In this document: piece after piece, positions 117 through 17,543 of the stretch
How positions within the stretch are numbered: the stretch's first letter is position 1
Layout of the letters: each line of letters opens with the position of its first letter
Assembly: GCA_964597575.1 (NCBI GenBank)
Contig: CAZQXB010000001.1
Span: forward strand, 402,111 to 466,110
Direction of reading: 5' to 3'
Length of the DNA: 64,000 bases
From: an uncultured Gammaproteobacteria bacterium
GTDB lineage: Bacteria > Patescibacteriota > Patescibacteriia > Magasanikbacterales > UBA922
The notes under the pieces: generated by a model
Seen by the model: the letters and a program-made list of their open reading frames with translations, nothing else
The model's database searches: none
What the model was told of the DNA's origin: nothing
Made by a program: the position numbers and the translations under genes

Positions 117-189
117 AGGCCTGTAGTTTCAATGGTAAAACATCGGTCTCCAAAACCGAGGTTCCGAGTTCGAGTCTCGGCGGGCCTGC
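117..189 (+). tRNA. tRNA-Trp (anticodon CCA)
   Basis: Manual cloverleaf: 7-bp acceptor AGGCCTG/CGGGCCT (one G-U), anticodon stem TCGGT/ACCGA with loop CTCCAAA, T-arm CCGAG-TTCGAGT-CTCGG, 72 nt. Confidence 0.8.
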
Positions 190-193
190 AATG

Positions 194-247
194 AAAAACA
201 TGGCTATATAAAGCCATGTTTTTTGTACTCGCAAACGGAATCAAACT
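194..247. repeat. inter-cassette repeat, partial copy 0 (terminator hairpin aaaaacatggct..agccatgtttttt + diverged 3' motif ctcgcaaacggaatcaaact)
   Basis: Shares the hairpin and 3' motif with copies at 1486, 4889, 6911, 10175. Confidence 0.6.
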
Positions 248-339
248 GCTTTCAATTTTATTATTAAGATTTAGTGTTAGAGATACTCATTATATGGTAG
301 TATAAGAGCCACTAGTTAATTATTTTCGTTATAGTTTTC

Positions 340-1467
340 ATGAAGATCGCTACAAACGTACATCGAGATGCCTTTGGTGGTATTACTATTTCCAATCTCG
401 CTCTTTTTGATTGGTTGAAAGATAAAGAAGATACCGTAGTAGGCATTGAAATTATTACAAGTCGACATTTGCTTGGTCCCGTTATATTTCGTCATTATTT
501 ACCATCTTTTTTTCAACATCATATTATCAATGGTATTGACATTATTCCACGTTTTTCTTGGGAAAGACGTGGAAATCTTCGAAAAAAATGGAATATTCTT
601 GTTGAAAATACAAAAGATATTTTACGTCAAGAGTCACCCGACGTCGTTTTGCTTAATGGTACTTATAGTACTCCTTGGATTTTGGCACAGGCAGCAAAAG
701 AGTTAGGAATACCATTAGTTCTACGATATGCAGGAGTTCTTCAAAAAGAAGTGAGTCATAAAAATTTTTTTGTAAAAAAAAGATTGTTATTTTATGAAAA
801 ATGGATTGCGTCTTCTGCTACAAGTATTATTTTTCCTTCTCGTATCTGTCAAAAAATTGTAGAAAAAGAAATATTAGGTCAGAGTGTGAATTGCAGCGTT
901 GTTATTTCTAATCCAGTTGTTCCTGCAAAAAAATTGGTACGGAGAAAAATTGGGCGTTTCACTATCTCTGCCATAGGGCGATGGACGCCAATTAAAAATT
1001 TTCAAGCATTTGTAGCTTTGCATCGTGAGCTTCTCTCAGAAGGGTGGCAACATCGAGCCGTTATGGTAACATCGTATTGGGATGAAAACTTTGATATCCC
1101 TGAAACGATTGAGAAGAAAAAGCAAATGAGTCAAGAAGATCTTTTCAAATTTTATCGATCAGTTGATCTTCTCATCGTCCCTTCACATTTTGAGACGTTT
1201 TGCAATGTCGCAGCAGAAGCTCTTATTTGCGGAACTTCTGTGTTAGTATCAAAAAATGTGGGATTTTCTGAGATACTCATAAAGGCCGGATTGAAAAGAA
1301 TGGTAATTGACTCATTTGATAATCCTAAAAAGGTTGCTGAAGCGGTGAAACGAATTGCTAAAACAAAACTCACGCAAAAAGAAGTAAAAAAAATTGCCCT
1401 TTTACTCAACCCACAAGACATACACCAGGGTATACTTGATGTTCTTGGTGGTGTTATAAAGGTATAA
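340..1467 (+). CDS. glycosyltransferase, GT4-like (GT-B fold)
   Basis: C-terminal motif VPSHFETFCNVAAEALICGTSVL typical of GT4 retaining glycosyltransferases; 375 aa; about 33% GC. Confidence 0.6.
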   Translation: MKIATNVHRDAFGGITISNLALFDWLKDKEDTVVGIEIITSRHLLGPVIFRHYLPSFFQHHIINGIDIIPRFSWERRGNLRKKWNILVENTKDILRQESPDVVLLNGTYSTPWILAQAAKELGIPLVLRYAGVLQKEVSHKNFFVKKRLLFYEKWIASSATSIIFPSRICQKIVEKEILGQSVNCSVVISNPVVPAKKLVRRKIGRFTISAIGRWTPIKNFQAFVALHRELLSEGWQHRAVMVTSYWDENFDIPETIEKKKQMSQEDLFKFYRSVDLLIVPSHFETFCNVAAEALICGTSVLVSKNVGFSEILIKAGLKRMVIDSFDNPKKVAEAVKRIAKTKLTQKEVKKIALLLNPQDIHQGILDVLGGVIKV

Positions 1468-1485
1468 GTCTAGGATGTAAAATTT

Positions 1486-1607
1486 GGAATATAAATATAT
1501 TCCTTCTCCTCACGGAGAATAGTTCCCACCTCCTTCACCAAGTTCTGCACCGAAAAACATGGCTAACTAAAGCCATGTTTTTTGTATACCCGCGTGTGGA
1601 ATCGAAC
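1486..1607. repeat. inter-cassette repeat copy A (right 120 bp of element)
   Basis: ggaatataaa...cacgg..agttcc.acctccttcaccaag.tctgcaccgaaaaacatggct..agccatgttttttgtatacccgcgtgtggaatcgaac. Confidence 0.7.
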
Positions 1608-1697
1608 TAAATGGTGTTTTTGCTATAAAGAATCTACGCACTTGCAATATAAAATATAAATGGCAAGCTATATACAATCATTTACTATCTATAAACT

Positions 1698-2135
1698 ATG
1701 CCTAAGAAAAAATTGCAACATCAAAAAGACATTAATGGTTGTGGTATAGCCTGTATATCCAATCTATTGGGTAAGCCATACGACTGGATTAAGAAGGATT
1801 TTGAAGATAGATTTTATACCATTGAAAGAGGGGTAAAGATTTTTGATGTTGTTTCATATCTAGAAACACACAAGCTTAAATATAAGAGTAAATTTTTTAA
1901 CCAAAATAAGAAGTCTAAAGTAGACGTCGGTGAAGCAGATGCATTTTCTAAAATACCAGGGTCTATAACGTTAATTGCTAAAAATAAAACGTACCCTATT
2001 GGGCATTATTTACTCCGAACCAAAGATGGTTGGGTGGACCCATGGTATAACTTTCCAAGTATAGATAATGTACGGGCTGGGATGAGAAAAGAGCTGCCTG
2101 GTAACCCTTGGTATGTTATGTATCCAATCGCTTAA
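1698..2135 (+). CDS. papain-like cysteine peptidase, C39-like domain protein
   Basis: Q-x5-NGCGIACISNLLG catalytic Cys motif and downstream GHYLL His motif resemble the peptidase C39 family. Confidence 0.45.
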   Translation: MPKKKLQHQKDINGCGIACISNLLGKPYDWIKKDFEDRFYTIERGVKIFDVVSYLETHKLKYKSKFFNQNKKSKVDVGEADAFSKIPGSITLIAKNKTYPIGHYLLRTKDGWVDPWYNFPSIDNVRAGMRKELPGNPWYVMYPIA

Positions 2136-2206
2136 ATAAGCAGGTTCCAAGTTCATTCTGTACGGCCTACTAGCGTGTAATTCGTACTGGATTCTGAAAG
2201 AGCTGT

Positions 2207-2803
2207 ATGGTAGTCTCTATTAAAGATTATATGGCACAAAATACCTCATTTGAATATTTAGTAAGCGAGATTAGGGCTACTAGTTCTCAAACTTTTGTCA
2301 TTGCCATTTCAGGCTTTGGGGGTTCTGGAAAAAGCACAATAGCGAAGAAATTGGTAGAAGCACTTAAAGATGCTACTATTATCCCTCTTGATGATTTTAT
2401 CATGAATCGTCTCCAAGGCCGTTCTTTGGAGTGGGCATCTTTTGATTGGCAACGATTAATAAAAGAGGTGTTACTTCCAATAAGAAAAAGAGAAAAAAGC
2501 ATCGAATATGGTGTGTATTCTTGGATAGAAGATAAGGTGGCTCAGAAAAGAACAGTAGAGATCAAAAAGTACGTTATTATTGAAGGGGTCGGACTTATCC
2601 GAGATTCTTTGCAAGAATACTTTGATTGCACCGTATGGATCGATACCCCTTTTGATATAGCGATTGCTAGGGGTAAAAAACGTGATAAGGAAGAGTATAG
2701 TATAGATCATGACAAGCTTTGGGATGAAGTGTGGGGTCCAAATGATAAGGATTATTTTGATACATTTAAACCTAAAGAGAAAGCCGACTTCGTTCTTTCC
2801 TAA
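2207..2803 (+). CDS. P-loop nucleoside kinase (uridine kinase/phosphoribulokinase family-like)
   Basis: Walker A AISGFGGSGKSTIAKKL; VIIEGVGLIRD...VWIDTPFDIAIARGKKRD resembles the Udk/PRK family. Confidence 0.5.
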   Translation: MVVSIKDYMAQNTSFEYLVSEIRATSSQTFVIAISGFGGSGKSTIAKKLVEALKDATIIPLDDFIMNRLQGRSLEWASFDWQRLIKEVLLPIRKREKSIEYGVYSWIEDKVAQKRTVEIKKYVIIEGVGLIRDSLQEYFDCTVWIDTPFDIAIARGKKRDKEEYSIDHDKLWDEVWGPNDKDYFDTFKPKEKADFVLS

Positions 2804-2812
2804 AGAAGAGTT

Positions 2813-3733
2813 ATGAAGACTAAAAATACATACCAACTTCCTATTGTCTTAGCACACGTTACAAAAGTCGCAAAAGAAGGTATTGCTCATGTTGGTGACC
2901 TCATTCATTCGATTGACTACGATGCACCAATCGGTACCCCAATTACCGCTGCCCTTGATGGTGTTGTTATTGCTATAAAGCAAGATTCAGATCAAGGTGG
3001 AGGCGATCCAAAATATGAGAATGATGGAAATTATATCGAAATTCTCCATGAGAATGATGAAGTTTCAGAATACGAACATATTCTACAGCATTCTGCTAAA
3101 GTAAAGATAGGCGATGGGGTTAAAAAGGGGCAGGTTATTGCATCAGTCGGAAATACAGGGTGGAGCGAGTGTCCGCATCTTCATTTTATGGTGTACCCAA
3201 AAGGTGAGGAATATAAAACACTTGAAATTCAGTTTGAGAGTGAAGAATTCGTTGACCTGGTTGATAAAGAAGGGCGGATGCAAAAAACTCAAGTACTACG
3301 TTCAGAAGTGTCGAAGTATCCTAATTTACACATGCAAATTGTTATTGCAGTAATTTTAGATAACCAACAAAGAATTTTAGTCCATAAGAGAGCATCTACA
3401 AAAAAGGTAGATCCTGGAGCTGTCGATCATGTCTGTGGTGGGGTTCAGTCAGGAGAAACACCGATTGAGGCCGCTATACGAGAAACTACCGAAGAAACTG
3501 GGCTCGTTCCATGTAATCTAAAAGTCGTCATGCAAGGGCTAAATTCCTATGGCCGATATCGGTATTTACTTTTAGGTGAAGCCCAAGGAGAACCATCAGT
3601 TGATCCGAAAGAGGCAGAATGGGTACGCTTTATCTCGGTGGAAGATTTAAGAAATCTTTTTGAGAGTAAAAAAGAAGCTTTTGTTCATGAATTTTTTAAG
3701 GATACGGATTTAGCTATTCGTGCTACTGTCTAA
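2813..3733 (+). CDS. M23 (LytM-type) metallopeptidase domain fused to a NUDIX hydrolase domain
   Basis: M23 HxxxD and HLHF (HxH) motifs in the N-terminal half; NUDIX box GGVQSGETPIEAAIRETTEETGL in the C-terminal half; no signal peptide. Confidence 0.6.
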   Translation: MKTKNTYQLPIVLAHVTKVAKEGIAHVGDLIHSIDYDAPIGTPITAALDGVVIAIKQDSDQGGGDPKYENDGNYIEILHENDEVSEYEHILQHSAKVKIGDGVKKGQVIASVGNTGWSECPHLHFMVYPKGEEYKTLEIQFESEEFVDLVDKEGRMQKTQVLRSEVSKYPNLHMQIVIAVILDNQQRILVHKRASTKKVDPGAVDHVCGGVQSGETPIEAAIRETTEETGLVPCNLKVVMQGLNSYGRYRYLLLGEAQGEPSVDPKEAEWVRFISVEDLRNLFESKKEAFVHEFFKDTDLAIRATV

Positions 3734-4835
3734 GTATATGGAAATAAAGGCATTTTTTGGAATACTTTCATCTCTCTTCATCTTTTTAGGAGGTATTCCT
3801 TATTTGAGGGATATTCACTTAAGAAAGGCGCACCCGCATGTTCTTTCATGGATTGGCTGGGCTTTCATAACAGCTCTAGGAGCCTTTGCCATGCTGGCTG
3901 GGGGTAGTCAGTGGGCGGTTGCTATATTGCTCAGCAATACCCTTCTCTGTCTTCTTATTGTCCTATACTCAGTTTTTAAAAGAGTTGGCGTCTGGTCAAC
4001 CATGGTATGGGACTTTGTATTTTTTGGACTTGGGTTACTTGGGCTTGTGCTTTGGCAGACACTTCATCTCCCCATTCTCGCCCTCATCTGTGCGATTATT
4101 GCTGATTTTTCTTTCGGTCTCCCCACCATTGTTAAAACGTATAAAGATCCAAACTCAGAAACTCCTTTTGTCTGGGCTACTGCCACAATATCCGGAATAT
4201 TTAGTCTATTTGCTATAAGAAGTTTTGCTTTTTCTGAAGTTGCGTATCCATTGTATCTTTTTCTCTATGATGGAATTGTACTTCTTTTAGTGCTTAAGAT
4301 TTTTGTTAAAAAAAATAAAAATATTCGAAAATTGCTGGATACAATTGTTAATGAAAAAAATGAAAAGAACTGGTATGTTCCAGAATTATTTCAGCAGAAT
4401 ACGTTACCAATTTTACCAAGGGAGTTAAAAGTTATCGCTCTGCCTCCCTTATATGATGAAAACTACAATTGTTTTATCTATGCTCTGGGATTGTCGAATA
4501 ATCTTGAATTTATTAAGAAGGTGTCTGGTTTTATCTATAGCCCATTTGTTAAGAAGTTAATCGAAGAAGGAGTCCTTCGGGAATCTAAAGAAATAAAGAA
4601 AGGAACAATTATTTTATATACCAATGAAAAGAAATTTCCTGGGGAAATAGCGCATGCTGGGGTGATGAAAGATAAAGACACTGTTATTTCAAAATGGTCT
4701 TGGGGACCCACCTTAGAACATTCTCTGCTATCAGTACCTCTTTCGTATGGTGAAACATTGAAGTTTTATCATTTAGAATCTACAAATAGTGTTTTATTAG
4801 CATACGAGAAATTTAGTGCACTTAATAGGGCTTGA
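3720..4835 (+). CDS. polytopic membrane protein with C-terminal putative Cys/His hydrolase-like domain
   Basis: Five or six hydrophobic helices at the N-terminus; C-terminal NCFIYALG ... HAGVM Cys/His spacing like NlpC/P60 or CHAP-type folds. Confidence 0.35.
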   Translation: MLLSKYMEIKAFFGILSSLFIFLGGIPYLRDIHLRKAHPHVLSWIGWAFITALGAFAMLAGGSQWAVAILLSNTLLCLLIVLYSVFKRVGVWSTMVWDFVFFGLGLLGLVLWQTLHLPILALICAIIADFSFGLPTIVKTYKDPNSETPFVWATATISGIFSLFAIRSFAFSEVAYPLYLFLYDGIVLLLVLKIFVKKNKNIRKLLDTIVNEKNEKNWYVPELFQQNTLPILPRELKVIALPPLYDENYNCFIYALGLSNNLEFIKKVSGFIYSPFVKKLIEEGVLRESKEIKKGTIILYTNEKKFPGEIAHAGVMKDKDTVISKWSWGPTLEHSLLSVPLSYGETLKFYHLESTNSVLLAYEKFSALNRA

Positions 4836-4888
4836 CTGGTAAGTTGTTATCACGAATTAACCTCACACCTCAACTCACTATAGTTTGA

Positions 4889-5051
4889 GATATAGTGAGT
4901 ACTACTGTGGGGTAAGTGGAGAAATACTCGGAATATAAACATACCCTTTCTCTTCACGAATAATAGTTCCGACCTCCTTCACCAAGCTCTGCACCGAGAA
5001 ACATGGCTATAATAAGCCATGTTTTTTGTATACCCGCGTGTGGAATCGAAC
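4889..5051. repeat. inter-cassette repeat copy B (full, about 165 bp; preceded by 10-bp perfect palindrome aactcactata/tatagtgagtt at 4872-4900)
   Basis: Direct alignment to copies C and D. Confidence 0.75.
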
Positions 5052-5066
5052 TTTATGTATACTGGA

Positions 5067-5095
5067 TTGACAAAATACTCTTTTTGTGGTATTAT
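5067..5095 (+). promoter_or_regulatory. sigma70 promoter TTGACA-17-TATTAT driving the high-GC gene at 5250
   Basis: Consensus hexamers with 17-nt spacer; AGAGGAG RBS 9 nt before the ATG. Confidence 0.55.
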
Positions 5096-5249
5096 CTTTA
5101 GTCAAATTGTGTTTCAAAAATTACTAAATTTAGGTCATTTTACTGATTTAAATCTAGAAGTTTTTGACTGCTATAGCTAAACTTCTATCTTAGGTATTTG
5201 CTTAAGATATTGGTTCTCTACAATTCAATCGAAAGAGGAGTGAAGAAAA

Positions 5250-6785
5250 ATGGATAACAAGTTCTGTCCTCACGGCAAGCACGTGAAGTTCTGCGGCGAA
5301 TGCGGCAATCTGTGGTTCGAAGTGCAGGCGCCCCATGTCTGGATGAACAGCATGGACCCTGGACGAGATGCGGGGATCGGTCTGATGAAAGAGCGTCACG
5401 GTATCGTCACGGTGACTGTCGAGCAGCACCATCCGAGCCTCGGTCTTCTCGACAAGTCTGTGGTGATGGTGCATGTTACGGGACATCTCTTCGTTTGGGG
5501 TATCGAGAAGATTCTCGAAAACGCCCCGAACGTCAAAGAGATTCAGGTTCAGCCACACATGGTGAAGAAGCTGACCGACGCTCACCGTACTCTCTGTGCA
5601 AAAGCTGGAGTCAAGTTGACGAGCGGATACTCAGACCCTGACCGTGCTTGGGAAAAAGGTGAGGTGAGACGGTCGCCACGTTTCCTAAAGATACGGAAGT
5701 TCTTTCAGCTTCTCGAAGGCCAGCAAAAAAAGCTCTTCGACGAGCTCATCGAGTATGGTATCGAGTCGGCCCTCATGGCTCGGGACTACTACGAGGAAGC
5801 AAGTGACGGAAAGGAGGGGGAGGAGCCTGTCACACTGCATACTCTGTGTAAAAAGTACGGGTACAACGACAGTGTGATGGCCCACATCTCAGCTCGGATT
5901 TACTCCGTGCTAGTGTACCTCGATCCTAATTACAAAGTGGGGCAGGATTCGCGACGGCTTGCTCGTGTCATGAAGGATGATGTTGAAAGGCTTCGTGAGA
6001 AGTTCGCGACTGCAAAAGCAAGGCAGGATCAGGCAGCCGCGCTTGGTCTCCGAATTCTTCCTGTCGACATGCCACTGCAGCTCTACGATGAGTTGGAGAT
6101 GGTTGTTACTGCCCAGAGGAAGGGCTGGCTGAAGCAACTCCAGGCTGCAAGGCCGCGAGCGCATCGTGCTCTGACGCTGAGGTACGACATACGGGATACG
6201 CAAAATCCGCGTTTTCGTACCCTCGAAGAGGTGGCCGAGACGATGGGTGGCGAGGATTTCAAGACGCGCGAGAGAGCTCGTCAGTTGGTGGAGCAGGCTA
6301 TCGAGTTTTTCGTCTTGCAAGGACAGGCAAGCGGTGAAACTCTGAGAGCTGGACGCGTGCAGGAGAAAGCGACGAAGATCGTCCAGAAGAAGGCCGCTCG
6401 GGCAAAGGCTGGTCCTGTAACTCAGTTGACCAAGGTTCCTGGTCCCGTCGAAAAGCAGGTGGTGAACCTGGTTTGCCAGTCTTATGGCTTGCCTGAGACT
6501 GAGATCTTCACTCACGGCAAAGATCAGCCGTGGGCAGAAGCTCGACAGGTCATCATGGCTCTGTGGAGACGGTACCTCAACTGGTCCTACCCGCTGATCG
6601 CAAGAGAGATGGGTAAGGAAGATCACACGACGATCATACATGGTTGTCGAGAGATCGCCAGTCGTCGGAAGACCGACCGAGTGCTTGAACAGCGGATGAC
6701 GCTGATCGAGATGATGCTCGGCAAGCCGCCGCCCGACTTGAGCGCCATCGAAATTTCCCCAGATCCTTCCACTGCCTCGCAATGA
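5250..6785 (+). CDS. high-GC Zn-ribbon / sigma70-region-4-like HTH / DnaA domain IV-like HTH fusion protein (putative DNA-binding regulator or replication-initiator-like)
   Basis: N-terminal CPHGKHVKFCGECGN; RALTLRY..RTLEEVAE..TRERARQLVEQAI resembles sigma70 region 4; EARQVIMALWRRYLNWSYPLIAREMGKEDHTTIIHGCREIASRRKTD resembles DnaA C-terminal domain IV; about 58-60% GC against flanks of about 33%. Confidence 0.6.
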   Translation: MDNKFCPHGKHVKFCGECGNLWFEVQAPHVWMNSMDPGRDAGIGLMKERHGIVTVTVEQHHPSLGLLDKSVVMVHVTGHLFVWGIEKILENAPNVKEIQVQPHMVKKLTDAHRTLCAKAGVKLTSGYSDPDRAWEKGEVRRSPRFLKIRKFFQLLEGQQKKLFDELIEYGIESALMARDYYEEASDGKEGEEPVTLHTLCKKYGYNDSVMAHISARIYSVLVYLDPNYKVGQDSRRLARVMKDDVERLREKFATAKARQDQAAALGLRILPVDMPLQLYDELEMVVTAQRKGWLKQLQAARPRAHRALTLRYDIRDTQNPRFRTLEEVAETMGGEDFKTRERARQLVEQAIEFFVLQGQASGETLRAGRVQEKATKIVQKKAARAKAGPVTQLTKVPGPVEKQVVNLVCQSYGLPETEIFTHGKDQPWAEARQVIMALWRRYLNWSYPLIAREMGKEDHTTIIHGCREIASRRKTDRVLEQRMTLIEMMLGKPPPDLSAIEISPDPSTASQ

Positions 6786-6910
6786 GGCGCCCTTGAGCTC
6801 ACGCTCGGGCTTCGCGACTTCGGGTCAGTCGCAACAAATCAAACCGTCCCGATAGGTGATACTATCGGGAACATTCAAAACATCATCTCACTCGAGGTGA
6901 TTTTTTGTTT

Positions 6911-7074
6911 ATATATAGTGAGTATTACTCTCGGGTAACTGGTAAAAGGCTCGGAATATAAACATATCCTCTCTCTTCACGTATAATAGTTCCGACCCCC
7001 TTTACCAAGCTCTGCAACGAGAAACATGGCTATACAAAGCCATGTTCTTTGTATACCCCTGTGTGGAATCGAAC
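6911..7074. repeat. inter-cassette repeat copy C (full)
   Basis: Direct alignment to copies B and D. Confidence 0.75.
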
Positions 7075-7214
7075 CAAGGTGTAGTTCTAAAGAAAACTTT
7101 ATGATTTTTTTATCTAGGGTATGATATGTTCCTTTAGTTATTCTGAGTACCCTATTGTATACTCGACATACCGTGTATTCTTCAGTAGGGTACGCCCAGA
7201 ATAATCTATTTTCT

Positions 7215-7880
7215 ATGAACCGTAAAAACAACACTCTCATTGCATTACTAGTAGTTATCGTTATTCTCCTTATCGGAGGGTATGTTGTACTTGTCCAAAA
7301 AGAAAACGAACCAATGGTAGGTCCAGATAATGGAAATGGAACATCGGTTGAAATTCCATCTACCACACCATCTTCTAGTGAAGAGATAGTAAATAATGGA
7401 AGTTGGGAAAAATATACTTCTCCAGATTTGGGTATTTCATTTGAATATCCAGCAAGTCTTAGTCTCTTTCAAGAGCGTAAGGATACTGACCGCGGAGAGG
7501 GAAATTTTGTCATTCTGAAACGTGAGAATGAGCAGAGAAGATTTCTAGGAACAGTACTGGTAAGTTCTCCTGATTATATACGAGAAATTGATGGTTTTCC
7601 TTCCTATATGTCAGGAGATTATTTTTTGGATCAAAGCGAAAGTGAGATAGAAAAAATTATTAGACAGAGAATTCATGCGGTTACAGCCATTACCAAAATG
7701 CCAAATAATTTTTATGCAATTACGCAAGAATATGTGTTTGGTGATAATCCTGTAAAAGGGACATTTTATTTCACTCAAAGAAAAAATAGTGAGTTACTTA
7801 ATGTAAGTATATATCAAGTTGATGGGGTTATTAGTAAGCAAGAAGATTTAGAGAATTTTTTAGAAAGTTTCAAATTTTAA
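7215..7880 (+). CDS. hypothetical membrane-anchored/secreted protein
   Basis: ORF with N-terminal hydrophobic anchor MNRKNNTLIALLVVIVILLIGGYVVL; track ORF begins at 7155. Confidence 0.4.
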   Translation: MNRKNNTLIALLVVIVILLIGGYVVLVQKENEPMVGPDNGNGTSVEIPSTTPSSSEEIVNNGSWEKYTSPDLGISFEYPASLSLFQERKDTDRGEGNFVILKRENEQRRFLGTVLVSSPDYIREIDGFPSYMSGDYFLDQSESEIEKIIRQRIHAVTAITKMPNNFYAITQEYVFGDNPVKGTFYFTQRKNSELLNVSIYQVDGVISKQEDLENFLESFKF

Positions 7881-8013
7881 AGTTAGGAGAATTTGGTTGA
7901 GGTGATTGCGTACATGCTTGGCAGTATCCTCAACCAAATTTTGGCTGAGGTTCTTTCTAGAACTCATTGGATAACCCGATGATACTGCAAAGAAAAAATG
8001 AAGGGGTGCTGAC

Positions 8014-8110
8014 ATGCAGGCGATCGTTCGTTTTCTGCTATGTATGCTGGTGTTCTGTCCGTGGTTCGCTGCGGCAGATTACCAGGGACCTGTGTTATTT
8101 TCACCCCCCA
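8014..8110 (+). CDS. possible small high-GC hydrophobic peptide (MQAIVRFLLCMLVFCPWFAAADYQGP...), 3' extent uncertain
   Basis: GAAGGGG RBS 7 nt upstream of the ATG; high-GC hydrophobic N-terminus; reading frame runs on into AT-rich promoter-like sequence without a stop. Confidence 0.2.
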
Positions 8111-8171
8111 CTGTAAAAAATATTTACCTTAACACAAAAAAATGTTATGATAAAATCATAAGGAGGTGCAA

Positions 8172-8477
8172 ATGTCGGAATTCGAAAAAGATGCTGCGGT
8201 GCAGCTTGTGGCTGTGCTGCTTGTCGGCGGACTGCTTGTCCTGATCGCCCTGCACTTTGTTGTCTATTTTCTCTTCAGAGGCGTGCAGCCATTGGCTGCT
8301 GCTAGGATGCCTGCCACAGATCAATCTTTTTTAGAGCCAGATGCCACGCCTTGCGATGAAGAAGATCCTGAAGAGATGCGACAGTGCACAGATGCATGGG
8401 TGAGGGCAAGAGAGGCGGAGGGCGCAACTATCTTGCGGACACGAGACGGGCATGGGATTGTGGCTCTGGGCCCTTAA
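8172..8477 (+). CDS. small high-GC membrane protein with acidic C-terminus (hypothetical)
   Basis: AAGGAGG RBS and extended -10 (TGTTATGAT) upstream; one TM helix; about 60% GC. Confidence 0.4.
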   Translation: MSEFEKDAAVQLVAVLLVGGLLVLIALHFVVYFLFRGVQPLAAARMPATDQSFLEPDATPCDEEDPEEMRQCTDAWVRAREAEGATILRTRDGHGIVALGP

Positions 8478-8529
8478 CGATAGTGAAATCGATCCAGGGC
8501 TCCAGCCTCCAACGATCTGCTTCTGCTCA

Positions 8530-8585
8530 CAGAGTCACTTGCTATTGCTGTGACTCTTTTTTATGTTCCGTGCGTGGAATCGAAC
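8530..8585. repeat. inter-cassette repeat partial copy E (different hairpin agagtcac..gtgactc + T-run, conserved 3' motif ccgtgcgtggaatcgaac)
   Basis: 3' motif matches other copies. Confidence 0.55.
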
Positions 8586-8597
8586 TAAGTTAGATCA

Positions 8598-9236
8598 TTG
8601 AAAAGAATGAGGCTTTATGCTAGTGCATGTGTATTCTTAGATCTATCTTCTATTTTGTTTATTATGAATAATAAAGGTTTGTACGTCATCATTGCGTTTC
8701 TTTTGGTCATCCTTTGCGTTGTTGGATATAAAGCATATTCTGTTTCTGATCGTACATTGTCTCCAAATGAGCAGTTCTTAAATCAAGAAAATAACCCATC
8801 AAATGAAAATAAAGGCAATACGCTTACTGATTCTCTCAAAAACAGTAAGGGTTATAGCGCTGGCGATACACGTGATATCTCTTCGTTATCTAGTTCGGAT
8901 ACGAGTAAAGAACTCGATATTGCATTGATCCAGGATGTTAAAACTATTCAAAATCAAAATATCTCTTATAAGTTTTATCGAGTTGGATTTGGCGATGCGC
9001 CTCCACACTATAGTAATGGACAAATTATCGTTGAAGTAACGACGAATCAAAAAGGTCCAAGTCGATGGTATTATTTTAATACTGATATTATTGATGCTGA
9101 TTCTATTGAATCACTCCTGTTTAGTGGTGAGGATGTGCGTATGTCTTGTAAAACAGGTAAACCAAATGGTACATGTTTATATACGATAAAATTTCAACCA
9201 GACTTGGAGATGTTAAAAATTTATAAAGTAAATTAG
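8598..9236 (+). CDS. hypothetical membrane-anchored secreted protein
   Basis: ORF; TM anchor LYVIIAFLLVILCVVGY; real start may be an internal Met near 8663. Confidence 0.4.
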   Translation: MKRMRLYASACVFLDLSSILFIMNNKGLYVIIAFLLVILCVVGYKAYSVSDRTLSPNEQFLNQENNPSNENKGNTLTDSLKNSKGYSAGDTRDISSLSSSDTSKELDIALIQDVKTIQNQNISYKFYRVGFGDAPPHYSNGQIIVEVTTNQKGPSRWYYFNTDIIDADSIESLLFSGEDVRMSCKTGKPNGTCLYTIKFQPDLEMLKIYKVN

Positions 9237-9378
9237 TAGACCTCCTTGACACTAAGGTTAAATTACGTTAGGATTTCGAGCGACCAAAAGGTCATCACAT
9301 GCGTGGTGATTTTTTGTTTACTCATTCCTGTTCTTGTGTTACTTTTAATTTGTAGAATAACAAAATTTTATTTTTCGT

Positions 9379-10119
9379 ATGTCAGAAGGTCCAAAACGTT
9401 TTGAGTTAGGCCAGATGTTTCTTCGAGAAACAAATAGTATTCCACAAGCAGACAAATGGTTAGAAAACAGGGCTGAATGGATGGTTGGGGCTGCTCAAAT
9501 CAAAAAATATTTGGCACCAAAAATTGAATTTCGTGACAGATTGGCTGGAGAGGTAGAAAAAGGAGTAAAGGTGTTAGCTATTGGTGCAGGAAAAGGACAT
9601 GAGCTTGATGAAATGGACAGCATTCTTCCTGGCTCAGAAATCATAGGTCTTGACCCCGATGATTTTTATTCTCGACCAGTAAAGCAAAAACTAGAAAAAA
9701 CTGCCCATAATGCGTCATATCTTCCAGAAACTATTCGTGCAGAAAATTTAGAGGGTGTAGAAAATGCTTCACTAGATGGTGTAACATTATTTTTTGTACT
9801 CCATCATATTGATGAACAAAAACACGGCGCTGTTTTAAAAGAAATTCATCGTGTTCTTAAGCCAGATGGAAAGGTGTTTATCGCTGAAGATTTGGTAGAT
9901 AACGATGAGGAAAGAAAAATAACCGAAAGAACGGATCGTATTTTGAATACTGAGTTATCAGGCAAGAATTCACATCATTACCGAAGTATTCCTGAGTGGA
10001 AAGTTTTTTTTCATACATACGGCTTTGAAATAATAGAGGTAAGCGAACAGAAGCCTGATAAAGTTCGCCATGGATTTTTTGTATTAGAAAAAGCAAACAT
10101 TTTACAAAATAATACATAG
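9379..10119 (+). CDS. class I SAM-dependent methyltransferase
   Basis: Motif I VLAIGAGKGHEL and post-I acidic residue; LKPDGKVFIAE motif. Confidence 0.55.
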   Translation: MSEGPKRFELGQMFLRETNSIPQADKWLENRAEWMVGAAQIKKYLAPKIEFRDRLAGEVEKGVKVLAIGAGKGHELDEMDSILPGSEIIGLDPDDFYSRPVKQKLEKTAHNASYLPETIRAENLEGVENASLDGVTLFFVLHHIDEQKHGAVLKEIHRVLKPDGKVFIAEDLVDNDEERKITERTDRILNTELSGKNSHHYRSIPEWKVFFHTYGFEIIEVSEQKPDKVRHGFFVLEKANILQNNT

Positions 10120-10174
10120 TCACGGTAGATTTATAATATAATCAACTAAGACGGGGAAGGTTTTTTTGTTTGTA

Positions 10175-10337
10175 GATATATAGTGAGTGCTAGTGTGGGG
10201 TAACTGGAGAAACATATGGAATATAAATTTATCCCTTCTCCTCACGAATAAAGTTCCGACCTCTTTACCAAGCTCTGCACCGAAAAACATGGCTATAACA
10301 AGCCATGTTTTTTGTATACCCGCGTGAGGAATCGAAC
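10175..10337. repeat. inter-cassette repeat copy D (full)
   Basis: Direct alignment to copies B and C. Confidence 0.75.
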
Positions 10338-10351
10338 TAAAATTAAAATGT

Positions 10352-11908
10352 TCACTCTACCTTAAACATGAACATCATGCCTGCTTCGAGATGTTCAGAA
10401 ATATGACAGTGCGCCATCCACGTGCCTAGGTTGGATGGGTCAAGTAATATATCAACTGTTGCTCCGGCCGGAACCATAACCGTATCTTTCCATGCGAGGT
10501 TTGTTTGCGCTACACCGTTCACTGACAGAACAAGAAAGCGCTGACCGTGAAAATGAATCGGGTGTTGCATGGGGTGTGGGGAATTTGGGTCATTATAGAT
10601 TTCAATGCGTACCGGCTTATCTTTTTTGAAAACCCAGTCTATGTCCATATTGGATTTGCCGGTTGCGCTGTCTATGATCTTCCATCTTGTTTCTTTCGTG
10701 GTTGCCATTCTGTTCATCATCTGTATCATGCCCCCCTCGTTTTCCCATTCAATACCATCATTTGACATCCCCATGTTCATGTCATTATGTGCACCTCCCG
10801 TTGACTGCATGTGCTCTGCCATCATGCCTGACAAGTCTACCGACAGTGTGAGTTTTTTATCTATAGCGTTGTGCATGTACGCACGAAATGGATCAATGCT
10901 TGCTTTCACCGCAGCGTTCTCTTGAAGAGTATTGAATTCTTTTGTGTACGAAGGCTCGGCAATATCCGTGCTGACAACGATATTCCCTAACGTTACAGGA
11001 CCGTTTGGAATGTTGTTTTGCAGTGCGTACGTTCCGGCCGTTGCAAACATCACATCCACAATCGCACGCTCCGAGGGGCCAAGAATAACACTATCTTGCC
11101 ACGTCGCTTTTTCATATGATCCATTGTCGCTGCCAAGCAGTTTCAGTTTTGTTCCGGCAATGGCTATTTTGAATGGACGAACATTTGCAGCATTAACAAG
11201 AGAGAGTCGTATCACCTCGTTTGTCTTTGCATCGAGCGTAAAGTGTTCCTGCCCATTGACGAGCATAGTTTGGCCATAATGGCCCATGAGCACCTGGTCA
11301 TTCCGTTCTTTGGTGAGTGCTATGTGGCCGCTCTTGGTCGGCAGGTCAGAAAGAAACAGCACGTGCTGGCTATGTGCGGGCGGATAGTAGGCCGTGTCTT
11401 TGGGTTCAACCACAAACGCACCATAAAGTCCAAGCGCCTGTTCGTACACCTCATGTGTGTGCGGATGGTACCAGAACACCCCAGCATCTGGAAAGGTAAG
11501 TGTGTAGGTAAAAGAACCCCCGGGCGGAATTTCCTCTTGCTGGAGTTGTGATCCATCAAAGGCATTGTCCATGCGCACGCCATGTGAATGAAGAAGTGCA
11601 GGTAAATCTGTGTCATTTTTGAAATTGATCGCCACCTCTGCGCCCTGCGTCACGTGAATTTCCGGTCCCGGGATCATACCATTATAGGCGAGCATGGTTT
11701 GCTTGTGTCCGCCGATGTCTTTCGTTACGTACGCCGCGGTTAAGGTGTAAGTGTCACCGTTTTTAAGATGAATGATCTCATGCGGTTTGGTCTCTTCCGG
11801 TTGCGGTTGAGGTTCTGGTGCAGTGTTTCGGGATGCGAGTATGATAGCACCGATAATGCCGACGATAGTGATTGTGGTAATGATGAGGAGTAGATTCTTA
11901 TAACGCAT
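10352..11908 (-). CDS. multicopper oxidase (CueO/CopA-type laccase-like), secreted
   Basis: C-terminal HCHISEHLEAGMMFMFKV type-1/trinuclear Cu signature; HSHG and WYHPH motifs; probable start at MRYKNLLLIITT signal anchor (the track ORF extends to 12043). Confidence 0.8.
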   Translation of the reverse strand: MRYKNLLLIITTITIVGIIGAIILASRNTAPEPQPQPEETKPHEIIHLKNGDTYTLTAAYVTKDIGGHKQTMLAYNGMIPGPEIHVTQGAEVAINFKNDTDLPALLHSHGVRMDNAFDGSQLQQEEIPPGGSFTYTLTFPDAGVFWYHPHTHEVYEQALGLYGAFVVEPKDTAYYPPAHSQHVLFLSDLPTKSGHIALTKERNDQVLMGHYGQTMLVNGQEHFTLDAKTNEVIRLSLVNAANVRPFKIAIAGTKLKLLGSDNGSYEKATWQDSVILGPSERAIVDVMFATAGTYALQNNIPNGPVTLGNIVVSTDIAEPSYTKEFNTLQENAAVKASIDPFRAYMHNAIDKKLTLSVDLSGMMAEHMQSTGGAHNDMNMGMSNDGIEWENEGGMIQMMNRMATTKETRWKIIDSATGKSNMDIDWVFKKDKPVRIEIYNDPNSPHPMQHPIHFHGQRFLVLSVNGVAQTNLAWKDTVMVPAGATVDILLDPSNLGTWMAHCHISEHLEAGMMFMFKVE

Positions 11909-12107
11909 ATGGATAGAGATTAATACCGATAAGTTATGTGGGTTACGATATGTTTTTTCTGCGGAGAAGCAGGGTGTTACAGACAAACCATTTTTCATAA
12001 AAATGGTGCCGGTAGTGCAGGTGGTTTTTAAATTATTGTACATGAACCACTAGGCTGTGCAAGATCGGCAGTATCTGGCAGATACCCAAGGTAGACGGAG
12101 AAATAAT

Positions 12108-12127
12108 ACCCGTGTGCCGAATTGAAC
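12108..12127. repeat. degenerate copy F of repeat 3' motif (acccgtgtgccgaattgaac)
   Basis: 15/20 identity to the conserved 3' motif, same orientation. Confidence 0.4.
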
Positions 12128-12152
12128 TGAAGTTACATCTTAAACACCGTTG

Positions 12153-12203
12153 TTGCACAGAAAAATGAGGAGGTGTACTATATCCCCTATAGGGGGATAT
12201 ACT
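12153..12203 (+). promoter_or_regulatory. csoR promoter (TTGCAC-17-TACTAT) overlapped by CsoR-type operator palindrome TATATCCCC-tatag-GGGGATATA
   Basis: Pseudo-palindrome with C4/G5 tracts flanked by AT arms resembles described CsoR operators; overlaps the -10 and transcription start. Confidence 0.55.
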
Positions 12204-12212
12204 GTTTACACT

Positions 12213-12479
12213 ATGTACAAACCGAAAACTGAAAAAGAGCGTATTTTGCACCGTTTTAAAATTTCCATGGGCCACATGAAAAAGGTTATTGCCATGGTCG
12301 AAAGCGGTGCGTATTGCATCGACATCATTCATCAATCGAAGGCTGTTCAGAAAGGGTTACGAGAAACGGATCAGGTAATTTTAGAAAACCATTTAAACAC
12401 CTGTGCTGCAAAAGCTATTCGTGAAGGTCGTGAGAAAAAAGCGATTGATGAAATTATGGCTATTATTAAAAAAACCTAG
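12213..12479 (+). CDS. csoR: CsoR/RcnR-family copper-sensing transcriptional repressor
   Basis: About 88 aa; conserved C...H...C ligands (SGAYCIDIIHQ..., HLNTCAAK); start moved downstream of the operator. Confidence 0.7.
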   Translation: MYKPKTEKERILHRFKISMGHMKKVIAMVESGAYCIDIIHQSKAVQKGLRETDQVILENHLNTCAAKAIREGREKKAIDEIMAIIKKT

Positions 12480-12480
12480 T

Positions 12481-14772
12481 ATGGAAACTACTCAAAATTT
12501 TAGAGTGAAGGGGATGCATTGTGCAAGCTGTGCGAATATTATTACTCGCACGCTTAAAAAGATTGAGGGTGTATCTTCGGTTGATGTGAATTATGGTACT
12601 GAGACTGCGAAGATTGCATATGACCACTCGAAAACGTCATCCGAACATTTGTCGGATGCTCTGAAGCCTTTAGGGTATTCGTTTGCGGCTGAAGCAAAAG
12701 CGATGAACATGTCGGAAGGTGAGCATGTCGCCCACCTTGGCCTTGATCAGTCAAGAAAAGAAAAGTTGTCTGAGCTGACGGGGTTTAAAACAAAGGTATT
12801 GTCGGTTATTCCGCTCGCGGCGTGTAGTATTTTCATCATGGCTTGGGATACACTGTCTCAGCTCGGTGTTGTTCCTGCTATGTCACCTGTCCTTACGGAA
12901 TTCTTTCATCACCTTCTTCCCATTTTTGCCACCTACACGTTATTTATTGTAGGCATACCATACCTCCTTGGGGTTTATCGCTTTTTTCGGTACGGGAAAG
13001 CGAATATGGATACCCTCATTGGAATTGGTACACTCGCCGCTTTTTTGTATAGTTTTGTCGTTACGGCTTTTGAAGACACGCTTCGTCCATTTTTGAATGT
13101 CGAACACAATTATTACGACGTGACTATCGTTGTCATTGCCTTTATAACTCTCGGAAAATATCTCGAAGCGAAATCAAAAATGAAAACAGGGGATGCGATT
13201 GAAAAACTTCTCAATCTTCAGGCAAAAAGCGCGCTTGTTATTCGTGATGGGTTGGAAGTCGAAGTGCCGATTCAAGAAGTTATGCGTGGTGAACTCATTA
13301 TCGTAAAGCCAGGGTCAAAAATTCCGGTAGACGGTGTCCTTACGGAGGGCTCATCATTTGTTGATGAGGCAATGGTTACAGGAGAGCCAGTGCCTGTGGA
13401 AAAACAGGCTGGAAACGCGGTTATTGCCGGAACCATAAATACGAACGGTACTTTTACGTTTAAGGCGACTAAGGTGGGCGGAGAAACAATGCTTGCTTCA
13501 ATTATCGCGATGGTTCAGGAGGCCGAAGGAAGTAGGGCTCCAATTCAGGCTCTTGCGGACAAGATCTCTGCGGTCTTTGTGCCAATTGTTATATCTCTTG
13601 CTGTTGTAACCTTTATCGCCTGGCTTATTTTTGGAATACCTTCACTTGGGTTTGCGCAGGCACTGTCAAGCGGCCTTCTGTCATTTGTGGGCATTCTTGT
13701 CATTGCGTGCCCATGTGCTTTAGGTTTAGCTACACCGACCGCAATTATTGTGGGAGTGGGTAAAGGGGCAACGAATGGAATTTTAATTAAAGATGCGGCA
13801 ACGCTTCAGAAGCTCCATACGGTTACAACGATAGTCGTTGATAAAACAGGTACTCTGACAAACGGAAAACCAGAATTGACATCGGTAGAGTCGCTTGGCG
13901 GTTTATCTCGGAACGAAATTATTTCTCTTTTGGCATCTTTGGAAAATAAATCTGAACACCCCATTGCACATGCCATAGTAACTCACGCAAAAAATAATAA
14001 CGTAGAAATACACAATGTCGAGAAATTTGAAACCATAAAAGGGAAGGGTGTTACGGGGTTTATTCAGGGAAAACAGTACTTTGCGGGAAATATACGATTT
14101 GTCGTCGAACTTGGTTTATCGGTCGACGAAAGCGCTCTGTTAAAAGCCGCTGCAGAAGGGAAAACACCGGTGATACTGGCCACAAAAAAAGAAGTGATTG
14201 CAGTGGTCATGGTTGCTGATGCTGTGAAATTTGAGGCGAAAGAGTCAATTCAGAAATTACATGCGCTTGGTTTGAAGGTTGTTATGCTGACAGGAGATAA
14301 CAAAAACACCGCCCGCTTTATTGGAGATCAATTGGGAATTGATGAGGTTGTGGCAGAGGTGTTACCTCAAGACAAGATGGCTAAAATTAAATCACTTCAA
14401 GCCGCAGGGCAAATCGTAGCGATGGCCGGGGATGGAATTAACGATGCTCCTGCCTTAGCGCAAGCAGATGTAGGAATTGCCATGGCGACCGGTACTGATG
14501 TGGCGATTGACTCAGCAGGAATTATTCTTTTAAACGGAGATATTTCAAAAGTAAGTAAAGCTATACATTTGTCCAAACAAACAATGCGAGGAATTAAACA
14601 AAACTTATTTTGGGCCTTTATCTATAATATTGTTGGTATTCCTCTCGCGAGTGGCATCTTCTTCCCAATATTTGGCTGGCTTATTAGCCCAGTGTTTGCA
14701 GGGGCAGCCATGGCGTTTAGTTCCGTATCTGTGGTTTTAAATTCTTTACGTTTAAAACGAAGCACCCTCTAA
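12481..14772 (+). CDS. copA: copper-translocating P1B-type ATPase
   Basis: N-terminal HMA GMHCASCAN; CPC transmembrane motif IACPCALGLATP; DKTGTLT phosphorylation site; GDGINDAP. Confidence 0.9.
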   Translation: METTQNFRVKGMHCASCANIITRTLKKIEGVSSVDVNYGTETAKIAYDHSKTSSEHLSDALKPLGYSFAAEAKAMNMSEGEHVAHLGLDQSRKEKLSELTGFKTKVLSVIPLAACSIFIMAWDTLSQLGVVPAMSPVLTEFFHHLLPIFATYTLFIVGIPYLLGVYRFFRYGKANMDTLIGIGTLAAFLYSFVVTAFEDTLRPFLNVEHNYYDVTIVVIAFITLGKYLEAKSKMKTGDAIEKLLNLQAKSALVIRDGLEVEVPIQEVMRGELIIVKPGSKIPVDGVLTEGSSFVDEAMVTGEPVPVEKQAGNAVIAGTINTNGTFTFKATKVGGETMLASIIAMVQEAEGSRAPIQALADKISAVFVPIVISLAVVTFIAWLIFGIPSLGFAQALSSGLLSFVGILVIACPCALGLATPTAIIVGVGKGATNGILIKDAATLQKLHTVTTIVVDKTGTLTNGKPELTSVESLGGLSRNEIISLLASLENKSEHPIAHAIVTHAKNNNVEIHNVEKFETIKGKGVTGFIQGKQYFAGNIRFVVELGLSVDESALLKAAAEGKTPVILATKKEVIAVVMVADAVKFEAKESIQKLHALGLKVVMLTGDNKNTARFIGDQLGIDEVVAEVLPQDKMAKIKSLQAAGQIVAMAGDGINDAPALAQADVGIAMATGTDVAIDSAGIILLNGDISKVSKAIHLSKQTMRGIKQNLFWAFIYNIVGIPLASGIFFPIFGWLISPVFAGAAMAFSSVSVVLNSLRLKRSTL

Positions 14773-14773
14773 T

Positions 14774-16872: not shown

Positions 16873-17108
16873 AATGGTTTTTACACAAGCAAGCGATCTT
16901 GTGAGATGTCGTTTGTCTTATGCCGTAAATTTTTAGCCCGATGATTTTTAAAAGTAGGGGTCAGTAATTTTTGGTTAAAGATCCGTACGTTTAAAATCAA
17001 TTAATTTGGGCCACCGTTGGTCAGTCTACCAACCCTGAGCAATTGTGTGGTAGACTTCCAGTGAAGTAGAGGTGTAATTTGTGGTAATTTTATTTCAATA
17101 AAAATTAT

Positions 17109-17465: not shown

Positions 17466-17543
17466 TTTTCGATACATTGTTTTTTATACAAAAAGTGCGC
17501 CACCTTAATAAAACAATTGACGAGTGTATAAAAATATTTCCGT

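Follow-up and report, generated by a model that had tools for sequence, protein, structure and literature searches.

A Terminator-Bearing Repeat Family Separates Possible Recombinase-less Gene Cassettes at the 3' End of tRNA-Trp in a Patescibacterium

The tRNA-Trp Locus and Its Repeat Family

The stretch of DNA analyzed here, which we call the window, comprises 64,000 nucleotides (nt) of contig CAZQXB010000001.1 (assembly GCA_964597575.1), from position 402,111 to 466,110 of the forward strand; coordinates are window based unless they are attached to a locus of a related genome, such loci bearing L-numbers (L005, L017, L027, and so on). It opens 116 nt upstream of a gene for tRNA-Trp, after which blocks of unrelated accessory genes are separated by same-strand copies of a single repeat family (table 1). 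This arrangement had been recognized in a sequence-only reading of the DNA, and it stands with four long copies plus a half copy fused to the tRNA gene. The same family is present in the same variable region of five related genomes, where its copies are often split exactly at the pentanucleotide CTGCA, a pattern that we interpret below as possible site-specific insertion.

The host is a bacterium of the Patescibacteria (candidate phyla radiation, CPR) with a tiny genome. The TypA/BipA protein of L005 (CAYSXR010000004.1) has its best named relatives in Magasanikbacteria and other Patescibacteria, and the lineage is therefore placed within the CPR. The metagenome-assembled genome to which L005 belongs is labelled "uncultured Gammaproteobacteria," as are those of L008, L011, and L014; the TypA protein and gene order of L005 resemble those of Patescibacteria, and its label is probably wrong. 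Genomes of Patescibacteria are very small and, to our knowledge, few mobile elements have been recognized in them, while their acquisition of accessory genes is poorly understood. Relatives of the window keep the order TypA (upstream of tRNA-Trp), tRNA-Trp, variable region, DEAD helicase, DUF6938, EamA-like, GH42-like, amino-acid permease, and BacA. The variable region extends exactly from the last base of tRNA-Trp to the -35 element of the DEAD-helicase promoter and measures about 0.5 kb in L005, 0.5 kb in L016, 2.8 kb in L017, 3.5 kb in L020, 2.6 kb in L021, and 22 kb in the window.

A search for direct repeats retrieved a 167-nt family at 1441-1607, 4885-5051, 6908-7074, and 10171-10337, to which a 42-nt sub-family added 186-227, overlapping the last bases of tRNA-Trp, and a 21-nt sub-family of the tail added 8568-8588 and 12110-12130. 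The hairpin pattern of the repeat occurs five times in the window against 0.00 expected from shuffled sequences, and its 18-nt tail, with up to three mismatches, five times against 0.03. Every copy lies on the plus strand within the first 10.4 kb, and an nhmmer profile of the four long copies found no others anywhere in the 64 kb. Three partial copies had also been proposed: that at 194-247 is the half copy, that at 8530-8585 is retained as degenerate even if nhmmer does not pick it up (8500-8588), and that at 12108-12127 is doubtful and not significant by itself, having four mismatches and no hairpin. The second long copy is real, with its start moved from 4889 to 4860 because the unit includes the arm at 4860-4882, which other genomes conserve.

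Alignment of these copies with those of other genomes resolves a unit of about 205 nt that is built of five modules, A-B-core-C-D. Module A is an imperfect palindrome (ACCYCACACCTCAACTCACKATAG, a 7-nt spacer, and TATAGTGAGT..GTGGGGT), complete in the window only at 4860-4913; module B comprises about 60 CU-rich nucleotides (GGAATATAAACATACCCTTCTCCTCACGAATAATAGTTCCGACCTCCTTCACCAAGCT); the core between B and C is CTGCA; module C is a hairpin (AAACATGGCT-N6-AGCCATGTTTTTT) whose arms of about 10-11 nt enclose a 6-nt spacer and which forms a strong intrinsic terminator and so bears out the earlier suggestion that the repeat contains one; and module D is a 24-nt tail (GTATACCCGCGTGTGGAATCGAAC). Junction copy 2 is the sole full-length unit in the window, and its left A arm is conserved in L027 and L029. 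Copy 0 has neither A nor B and takes its CTGCA from the 3' end of tRNA-Trp itself; the same succession of tRNA-Trp, C, and D is found in L005 and L017.

The array is not an artefact of assembly, since contigs of an independent assembly (Logan, SRR13355620) reproduce the same arrangement over 134-1599, 1579-5043, and about 5023-34100, the last span being calculated for a contig whose sequence itself covers 12.2-33.6 kb. The first two are separate unitigs that correspond to cassettes E1 and E2, and the contigs end only where repeat copies share identical runs of at least 30 nt.

Table 1. Features of the tRNA-Trp locus, in window coordinates
Feature	Position	Strand	Description
tRNA-Trp (CCA)	117-189	+	ARAGORN; Rfam tRNA, 60 bits; last bases CCTGCA
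Copy 0 (half copy)	186-247	+	CTGCA 186-190, C 194-226, degenerate D to 247; nhmmer model positions 104-168, E=1.6e-11
Cassette E1	248-1485	+	GT4 glycosyltransferase 340-1467 (Pfam); 34.8% G+C
Junction copy 1	1486-1607	+	B, CTGCA 1545-1549, C, D; end of the GT4 gene in place of A
Cassette E2	1608-4859	+	145-aa open reading frame 1698-2135, P-loop kinase 2207-2803, M23-NUDIX 2813-3733, DUF7689 3720-4835; 37.2% G+C
Junction copy 2	4860-5051	+	A arms 4860-4882 and 4891-4913, B 4930-4988, CTGCA 4989-4993, C, D to 5051
Cassette E3	5052-6907	+	511-aa zinc-ribbon/DnaA_C-HTH protein 5250-6785; 51.9% G+C
Junction copy 3	6908-7074	+	Right A arm, B, CTGCA 7012-7016, C, D
Cassette E4a	7075-8499	+	Open reading frames 7155-7880, 8014-8244, 8166-8477, no domain matches; 40.3% G+C
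Degenerate copy 4	8500-8588	+	Stretch like the end of B, CTGC, different hairpin, well-kept tail 8568-8585 (2 mismatches, significant)
Cassette E4b	8589-10170	+	212-aa open reading frame 8598-9236, class I methyltransferase 9379-10119; 35.1% G+C
Junction copy 5	10171-10337	+	Right A arm, B, CTGCA 10275-10279, C, D; last copy, right end of the array
Multicopper oxidase	10352-12043	-	Pfam; convergent on copy 5; 46.6% G+C
Tail-like remnant, doubtful	12108-12130	+	Spacer between oxidase and csoR; no hairpin; 4 mismatches to tail consensus, not significant
csoR, copA, dsbD-cupredoxin	12150-15766	+	Pfam; colinear with L027, top high-scoring segment pairs 70-85% amino acid identity

The Repeat Family in Related Genomes

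The simplest insertions are those of L005 and L017, in which tRNA-Trp is followed by C+D, cargo, and a module B ending in ...GATGTTCTG(C), beyond which unrelated DNA begins; a right A arm precedes B in L017 only. The two insertions share both ends (92% and 87% identity) around unrelated cargo, which is one small open reading frame (ORF) in the former and ORFs of 231 and 101 amino acids (aa) in the latter, and their C+D modules are 92% identical to each other and 83-93% to the window copies. In L016, L020, and L021 the tRNA-Trp gene is 92-100% identical to that of L017 and divergence starts at the first base after it. The similarity of L017 to L016 is 96.7% from L017 position 14640 on, which lies 2.28 kb after tRNA-Trp in L017 vs 14 nt in L016.

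tRNA-Trp is not obligatory for the presence of the family: The nearest relatives of the window, with a DEAD helicase 73% identical, carry it beside histidyl-tRNA synthetase (HisRS) and csoR, with no tRNA gene in the sequence examined. In L031 and L027 the left flank is unrelated DNA that meets C+D at CCTGCA; C+D is followed by five genes including an M23-SET fusion, then by an A fragment, HisRS, B+CTGCA+C+D, two genes, and finally A+B+CTGCAC joined to the csoR flank. L035, the HisRS of which is 89% identical to that of L027, has HisRS, B+CTGCA+C+D, one gene, a full unit, and a further gene without homologue in L027, L031, or the window; it continues with C+D where L027 ends in A+B+CTGCAC and enters the csoR flank. 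L029 possesses one copy, A+B+CTGCA+C, which lies about 1.3 kb ahead of the kinase-like backbone genes upstream of the helicase. Gene content at the repeats therefore differs among relatives, and throughout the DNA open to examination the family keeps to one variable region at every locus and is not dispersed; both results favor the earlier idea of a cassette-organizing element. L027 2246-3535, 1.29 kb with an ORF of 422 aa, is missing from L035 within an otherwise homologous cassette and has no family repeat at its ends.

Between genera the copies are 80-94% identical, which equals their similarity within one genome, against 63-85% for core proteins. The disparity is plain between the window and L017, for which C+D is 89-93% identical, core proteins 63-64%, and tRNA-Trp about 70%. 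Moreover, the window copies do not cluster apart from those of L027, L029, and L035, which together with the conservation across genera excludes recent local duplication. A repeat conserved beyond the divergence of its hosts points to either horizontal movement or a strong constraint on primary sequence, as would apply to protein-binding sites.

Breakpoints at CTGCA

Seven of the 12 truncated copies lose homology within a few bases of CTGCA, in a unit of roughly 205 nt (P<1e-5), and this clustering has P about 0.001 when L005 and L017 are counted once. Copies that start at CTGCA are copy 0 of the window and those of L005 and L017, all on tRNA-Trp, as well as that of L031 at 661, which lies on non-tRNA DNA; copies that end there are found in L005, L017, and L027 (at 4839). 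The sequence-only reading had seen no relationship between the repeat and the 3' end of tRNA-Trp, a statement that has to be withdrawn, for CTGCA is common to both and homology switches exactly at this point. Such a switch is the signature of attL, attR, and attP sites; of the two analogies then offered, an integron-like array or tandem islands, tandem integrative elements consequently fit better and an integron less. Single insertions have the two halves of the unit flanking the cargo in L005 and L017, and the same logic holds in L031/L027 and L035. The locus also shows insertion at a tRNA 3' end, the exact point from which relatives diverge.

The unit is conserved on both sides of its short core, and the chromosomal partner shares with it 5-6 nt plus weak flanking similarity. 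A long conserved site facing a short partner is the attP vs attB pattern of lambda-type integrases. Partial tRNA copies as direct repeats, typically of at least 15 nt, are lacking at the locus, the only sequence in common with tRNA-Trp being CTGCA (5-6 nt). Module B, the 5' part of the unit, was also considered as a decayed copy of tRNA-Trp and rejected, as local alignments between them score no better than shuffles.

Other identities of the repeat were rejected too. Rfam recognizes only the tRNA at gathering thresholds, with chance-level matches at E up to 5 (FsrA, E=0.39), and RNAalifold on eight copies finds no compensatory pairs, variants disrupting the hairpin, which speaks against a structured RNA. 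An origin from phages or plasmids is not upheld by four pattern scans of IMG/VR, which returned nothing or chance matches, nor by a blastn search of phage and plasmid collections with the full unit, which gave no match. Scanned with the hairpin pattern, species-representative genomes yielded 13 loci, namely 12 unrelated terminators and one true relative, L005; a metagenome scan with a module pattern gave one chance match inside a gene.

Two features of the modules deserve mention in their own right. The left arm of A contains ACTCACTATAG (window 4860-4913; L027 450-500; L029 about 1725-1775), and the right arm has the same on the other strand. This string is identical to the phage T7 class III promoter from -10 to +1, a match that may be coincidence or reflect a protein-binding palindrome. 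The reverse complement of D reads GTTCGATTCC, about 5 nt, and CGGGTA, like a tRNA T-loop and acceptor 3' end followed by a terminator (window 1584-1607, 5028-5051, 7051-7074, and 10314-10337; L017 12394-12418, 11 nt of which match the T-arm of the L017 tRNA-Trp). A minus-strand tRNA suggested by the T-loop-like GTTCGATTCC does not adjoin the tail in any genome checked.

Search for a Recombinase

Among 47 ORFs of the window scanned with Pfam, 38 of them of at least 100 aa, none has a recombinase or transposase domain; beyond 15.7 kb the scan covered about half of the mechanically listed ORFs of at least 100 aa, the others being mostly ones that overlap scanned genes or run antisense to them. 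The earlier failure to recognize an integrase or transposase is thereby confirmed for the scanned ORFs of the 64 kb. Phage_integrase, resolvase, and transposase domains are missing likewise from the cassette ORFs of the window, L005, L017, L027, L029, L031, and L035. A hidden recombinase was sought in cassette ORFs with Pfam and NCBIfam, neither of which found any, the protein of E3 being a DNA-binding protein with a zinc ribbon and a DnaA_C-type helix-turn-helix (HTH). This absence from every cassette is unexpected if each of them was once autonomous. Upstream of tRNA-Trp, no integrase adjoins the gene in those relatives whose upstream side is visible, the neighbor there being TypA/BipA; the one exception is an unrelated tRNA-Thr island about 6 kb off in L017.

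That island (L017 3186-6830, 5-6 kb upstream of tRNA-Trp) is a classical integrative element with an HTH_17 (excisionase-like) protein, two tyrosine integrases, and repeated partial 3' ends of tRNA-Thr(GGT) (..GGATGACGGCTCA), and it appears unlike the cassettes at tRNA-Trp. Terminators of the form AAAACATCGCT-N6-AGCGATGTTTTTT that follow tRNA-Thr(GGT) genes (L005 3136-3170, L021 5277-5310, and L017 6317-6349) are near-copies of hairpin C, from which they differ by one compensatory pair change; the C-type hairpin may be a tRNA terminator typical of the lineage that cassettes mimic. Directly upstream of tRNA-Trp, L017 (11949-12359), L019, and L021/L022 (11939-12362) have an ORF for a GIY-YIG nuclease of 82 aa, preceded by an exact 38-nt duplicate of the 5' half of tRNA-Trp (to the anticodon loop), a GC hairpin, and a T-arm remnant. 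The arrangement suggests a homing-type insertion in the course of which part of the tRNA gene was duplicated.

Contents of the Cassettes and Flanking Genes

Most gene labels of the sequence-only reading hold, namely those of the GT4 glycosyltransferase, the kinase, M23-NUDIX, the DNA-binding protein (DnaA_C-HTH), the methyltransferase, and the copper genes, whereas its "peptidase" (1698-2135) and "secreted proteins" have no domain match. The cassettes are compositionally foreign to a backbone of 46.9% G+C, and their reported AT richness holds for most of them, E3 being the exception (table 1). E3 has a promoter-like site of its own at 5067-5095 (11/12 matches) and its own terminator at 6882-6901. 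In its protein, which combines a zinc ribbon with the HTH of DnaA domain IV, the first 400 residues match no Pfam or NCBIfam family; one stretch resembles sigma-70 region 4 by eye, with no domain match.

The first 142 aa (M23) of the window M23-NUDIX protein are 93% identical (89% at the nucleotide level over 446 nt) to the M23-SET protein at L031 1918-2667, which lies in a cassette of a different genus-level relative, the other parts of the cassettes being unrelated. The C-terminal enzymatic domains of these two proteins are swapped, in a modular architecture like that of polymorphic effectors. A second recurrent terminator (AAAA..TCACC..GGTGATTTTTTGTT) occurs in the array at 6876-6911 and 9285-9320, as well as at L016 8512-8545 and L017 14645-14677; in L016 a terminator of this GGTGATTTTTTGTT type stands 20 nt after tRNA-Trp.

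Copper resistance, which had been counted as a further cassette, is excluded from the array, since csoR-copA-dsbD is syntenic backbone in the nearest relatives. The multicopper oxidase has a backbone-like G+C content and is therefore probably not a cassette; it is missing from L027, where A+B+CTGCAC sits about 135 nt left of the shared csoR region. The colinearity of csoR-copA-dsbD with L027 and the composition of the oxidase place the end of the array at copy 5. To the right of the doubtful remnant at 12108-12130, homology to L027 resumes at the csoR operator.

The remaining genes of the window are of the housekeeping type (hrcA-grpE-dnaK-dnaJ, recJ, lepA, murJ, uvrB, and others). A second variable spot of the same interval, free of family repeats, is found between the copper genes and the kinase/DEAD helicase: The block 16000-21540, missing from L027 as the nearest relative, holds DUF305, DUF6122-like, and GFA-like ORFs together with a protein of 1315 aa without Pfam domain (17544-21491). 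Farther on, the minus-strand gene at 62245-63786 encodes 513 aa with an N-terminal Cro/C1-type HTH and an EPSP-synthase/MurA-like domain, an unusual fusion.

A Model of Cassettes Moved in trans

How could blocks of genes without a recombinase have accumulated at the end of a tRNA gene? The explanation that we favor, with a probability of about 0.5, is that integrase-less cassettes were inserted site-specifically at CTGCA, that the long repeat is their attP-like junction, and that the recombinase acts in trans. About five small cassettes would have entered successively at CTGCA, at the very 3' end of tRNA-Trp. Each would begin with C+D, followed in some by a promoter-like site (clearest in E3) and then by the cargo, and would close with A+B as its right end; a circular or tandem form would join these ends as A-B-CTGCA-C-D, that is, as the long repeat of 120-190 nt. 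The copy fused to tRNA-Trp would represent attL, the CCTGCA end of the tRNA gene providing the left half of the proposed attachment site, and tandem integrations would yield attP-like hybrid junctions. The recombinase itself would be supplied from elsewhere in the genome or by a helper element. Recombination between a long attP and a short attB would explain why single insertions have one half of the unit on either side of the cargo and arrays have the two halves together. Every cassette would then be transcriptionally insulated by its own terminator.

Several points weigh against this model. No recombinase was found in about 12 cassettes with about 25 genes from six genomes, by Pfam or precomputed annotation, so that the central step is an inferred one; the DNA examined amounts to a 64-kb window of a 914-kb genome plus about 20 kb per relative. 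Around CTGCA no inverted binding sites of the core type can be seen, and the model does not account for a further group of truncations where B starts (copy 1, L027 1987, L035 1502, and L005). Copy 5 (10171-10337) at the right end is attP-like and not attR-like, and the model therefore has to assume in addition that C+D is also the native terminator of tRNA-Trp or the remnant of a lost cassette. L031, in which the housekeeping HisRS stands between an A fragment and a B+C+D copy, fits poorly with clean cassettes. The hot spot has received insertions without family ends as well (the gene for 281 aa in L017 and the contents of L016, L020, and L021), and site-specific cassettes are hence at most one of several sources of variation. 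Finally, no circular form, empty site, or polymorphism between strains was seen directly: Gene order is the same in four assemblies of the L027 species, and each of the three Logan contigs is present in an equal number of samples (three).

Alternative Explanations

Chief among the alternatives, and unlikely in our judgment, is that the repeat serves the host as a functional intergenic element, either a 3'-end or small-RNA element or a terminator-insulator, around which gene content changed when DNA was taken up and exchanged by ordinary homologous recombination, the repeats acting as portable homology. The unit is invariably placed behind a stop codon in the sense direction and has a strong intrinsic terminator at its end, and C is similar to terminators that follow other tRNA genes of the lineage; its conservation is at the level of primary sequence, and B holds conserved CU-rich stretches like anti-Shine-Dalgarno sequences (CCCTTCTCCTCAC and ACCTCCTTCACC), the second of which, however, is not conserved in L005 and L017. 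A function as RNA is countered by the lack of any Rfam match, by stems in neither of which compensatory changes occur while variants break pairs, and by an upstream region with no convincing conserved promoter, the -35 region not being conserved. Copies do share identical runs of at least 30 nt, at which the Logan unitigs break and which are sufficient for RecA, and the insertions lacking family ends would also be accommodated. Yet homologous exchange predicts spread breakpoints instead of seven of 12 at CTGCA, and a functional RNA gene should not occur as halves around cargo, as the family does in L005, L017, and L031/L027.

We consider it quite improbable that the cassettes are decayed classical islands targeting tRNA genes, each with its own tyrosine integrase beside attP, that accumulated in tandem at tRNA-Trp and later lost the integrase by deletion, as in cis-mobilizable elements (CIMEs). 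The att-type layout would be the same as with cassettes moved in trans, and the lineage does contain classical islands, exemplified by L017 3186-6830 with its two tyrosine integrases. Decayed elements that have piled up in tandem beside tRNA genes are well documented (PMC5704250; tycheposon islands, which hold degenerated fragments, bioRxiv 10.1101/2020.12.28.424599; ssrA islands of Dehalococcoides, PMC3146451). However, in about 12 cassettes from six genomes neither an integrase, whole or fragmentary, nor an excisionase is retained; at 0.4-3.3 kb, the cassettes are below the usual size of islands; junction sites 80-94% identical across genera are unexpected for dead remnants; and the identity with the tRNA gene is 5-6 nt vs a tRNA repeat of 13-31 nt in the classical island of L017. 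The lack of recombinases in the cassettes, combined with their dissimilarity to that island, is what leads us to favor movement in trans over decayed islands.

It is very unlikely that the unit of ~200 nt is a non-autonomous transposable element (a miniature inverted-repeat element or an IS200/IS605-like palindromic one) inserted repeatedly in one direction, with the intervening genes incidental: Hairpins near both ends (the A palindrome and C) without terminal inverted repeats, copies that all point the same way on the leading strand (with a GC skew positive all along), the absence of target duplication, and the high similarity across genera would suit it, but in all DNA seen the copies lie at one locus and are not dispersed, half units flank cargo in several genomes, which transposition of whole units cannot yield, no Y1 or other transposase domain occurs in the window, and scans of JGI metagenomes (B pattern) and species-representative genomes (C-hairpin pattern) returned no family member and only L005, respectively.

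Implications and Comparison with Known Systems

The region points to a defined hot spot that stacks foreign units (glycosyltransferase, M23-domain fusions, kinase, methyltransferase, and DNA-binding proteins), apparently organized by a conserved site shared across genera, and it may represent an undescribed way of collecting genes. A trans-acting recombinase, if real, would mean integron-like gene capture built from different parts in a major uncultivated lineage, and a compact recombination site with its recombinase would be of possible use as a tool. If the cassettes were decayed islands instead, the repeats would be the first described att family and the locus the first described tRNA-Trp hot spot for the group. 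More tentatively, and with distinctly less confidence than in the model itself, we suggest that the lineage might own a capture platform analogous but unrelated to integrons, in which a chromosomal recombinase would move self-insulated cassettes in trans by means of an attP-like site of ~200 nt that recombines at CTGCA with the end of tRNA-Trp and a few secondary sites, the cassettes circulating between genera.

A close parallel, which the array matches in its logic, is offered by the ICESt1 family of Streptococcus elements and the related CIMEs, which line up head to tail from the 3' terminus of a tRNA gene and meet at att junctions, some without recombination genes, and for which mobilization in cis or in trans by a related integrase has been proposed (PMC5704250). 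Our array is like such accretions in its head-to-tail elements at a tRNA 3' end with att-like junctions. It differs from them in that no member in six genomes has an integrase, in the small size of the elements (0.4-3.3 kb), in its host among Patescibacteria, in a long conserved attP-like junction that shares only CTGCA with the tRNA, and in the occurrence of the family also away from tRNA-Trp (L027, L031). Tycheposons of Prochlorococcus form islands in streamlined genomes that have grown by repeated site-specific integration; elements of this type carry partial tRNA flanks and, among 937, have 910 tyrosine and 27 serine recombinases (bioRxiv 10.1101/2020.12.28.424599). In Dehalococcoides, tandem islands linked to ssrA have arisen in the same manner in streamlined genomes and likewise carry site-specific recombinases (PMC3146451). 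As in these two systems, a variable island lies beside a tRNA or tmRNA gene of a streamlined genome and newer arrivals would push older ones along; unlike tycheposons, whose definition does not cover the array, it has neither a recombinase nor partial tRNA flanks.

With regard to the Xer system, the arm-spacer-arm geometry of hairpin C is dif-like, but no similarity to known dif sites was established, homology breaks upstream of this hairpin, at CTGCA, and, unlike dif, the repeat site is not at the replication terminus as far as can be told. Integrative mobile elements exploiting Xer (IMEX) and pdif modules are bounded by repeated recombination sites, have no recombinase of their own, and exploit XerC/D of the host, and the cassettes may be like them in being moved by a recombinase encoded elsewhere.

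The array is like that of an integron in having small unrelated accessory units in one orientation, structured site-like repeats, a fixed platform, and no recombinase inside the units. The attC core GTTRRRY is absent from both strands of every unit, as the sequence-only reading had already indicated, and the identity of the repeat as attC is rejected on this ground and on its conservation in sequence (80-94%) rather than in structure alone, with no compensatory changes. Unlike integrons, the platform has no intI beside it where the upstream side of relatives is visible, and some units carry their own promoter as well as a terminator, while the equivalent of attI would be the 3' end of a tRNA gene. 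The resemblance to integrons is one of function only.

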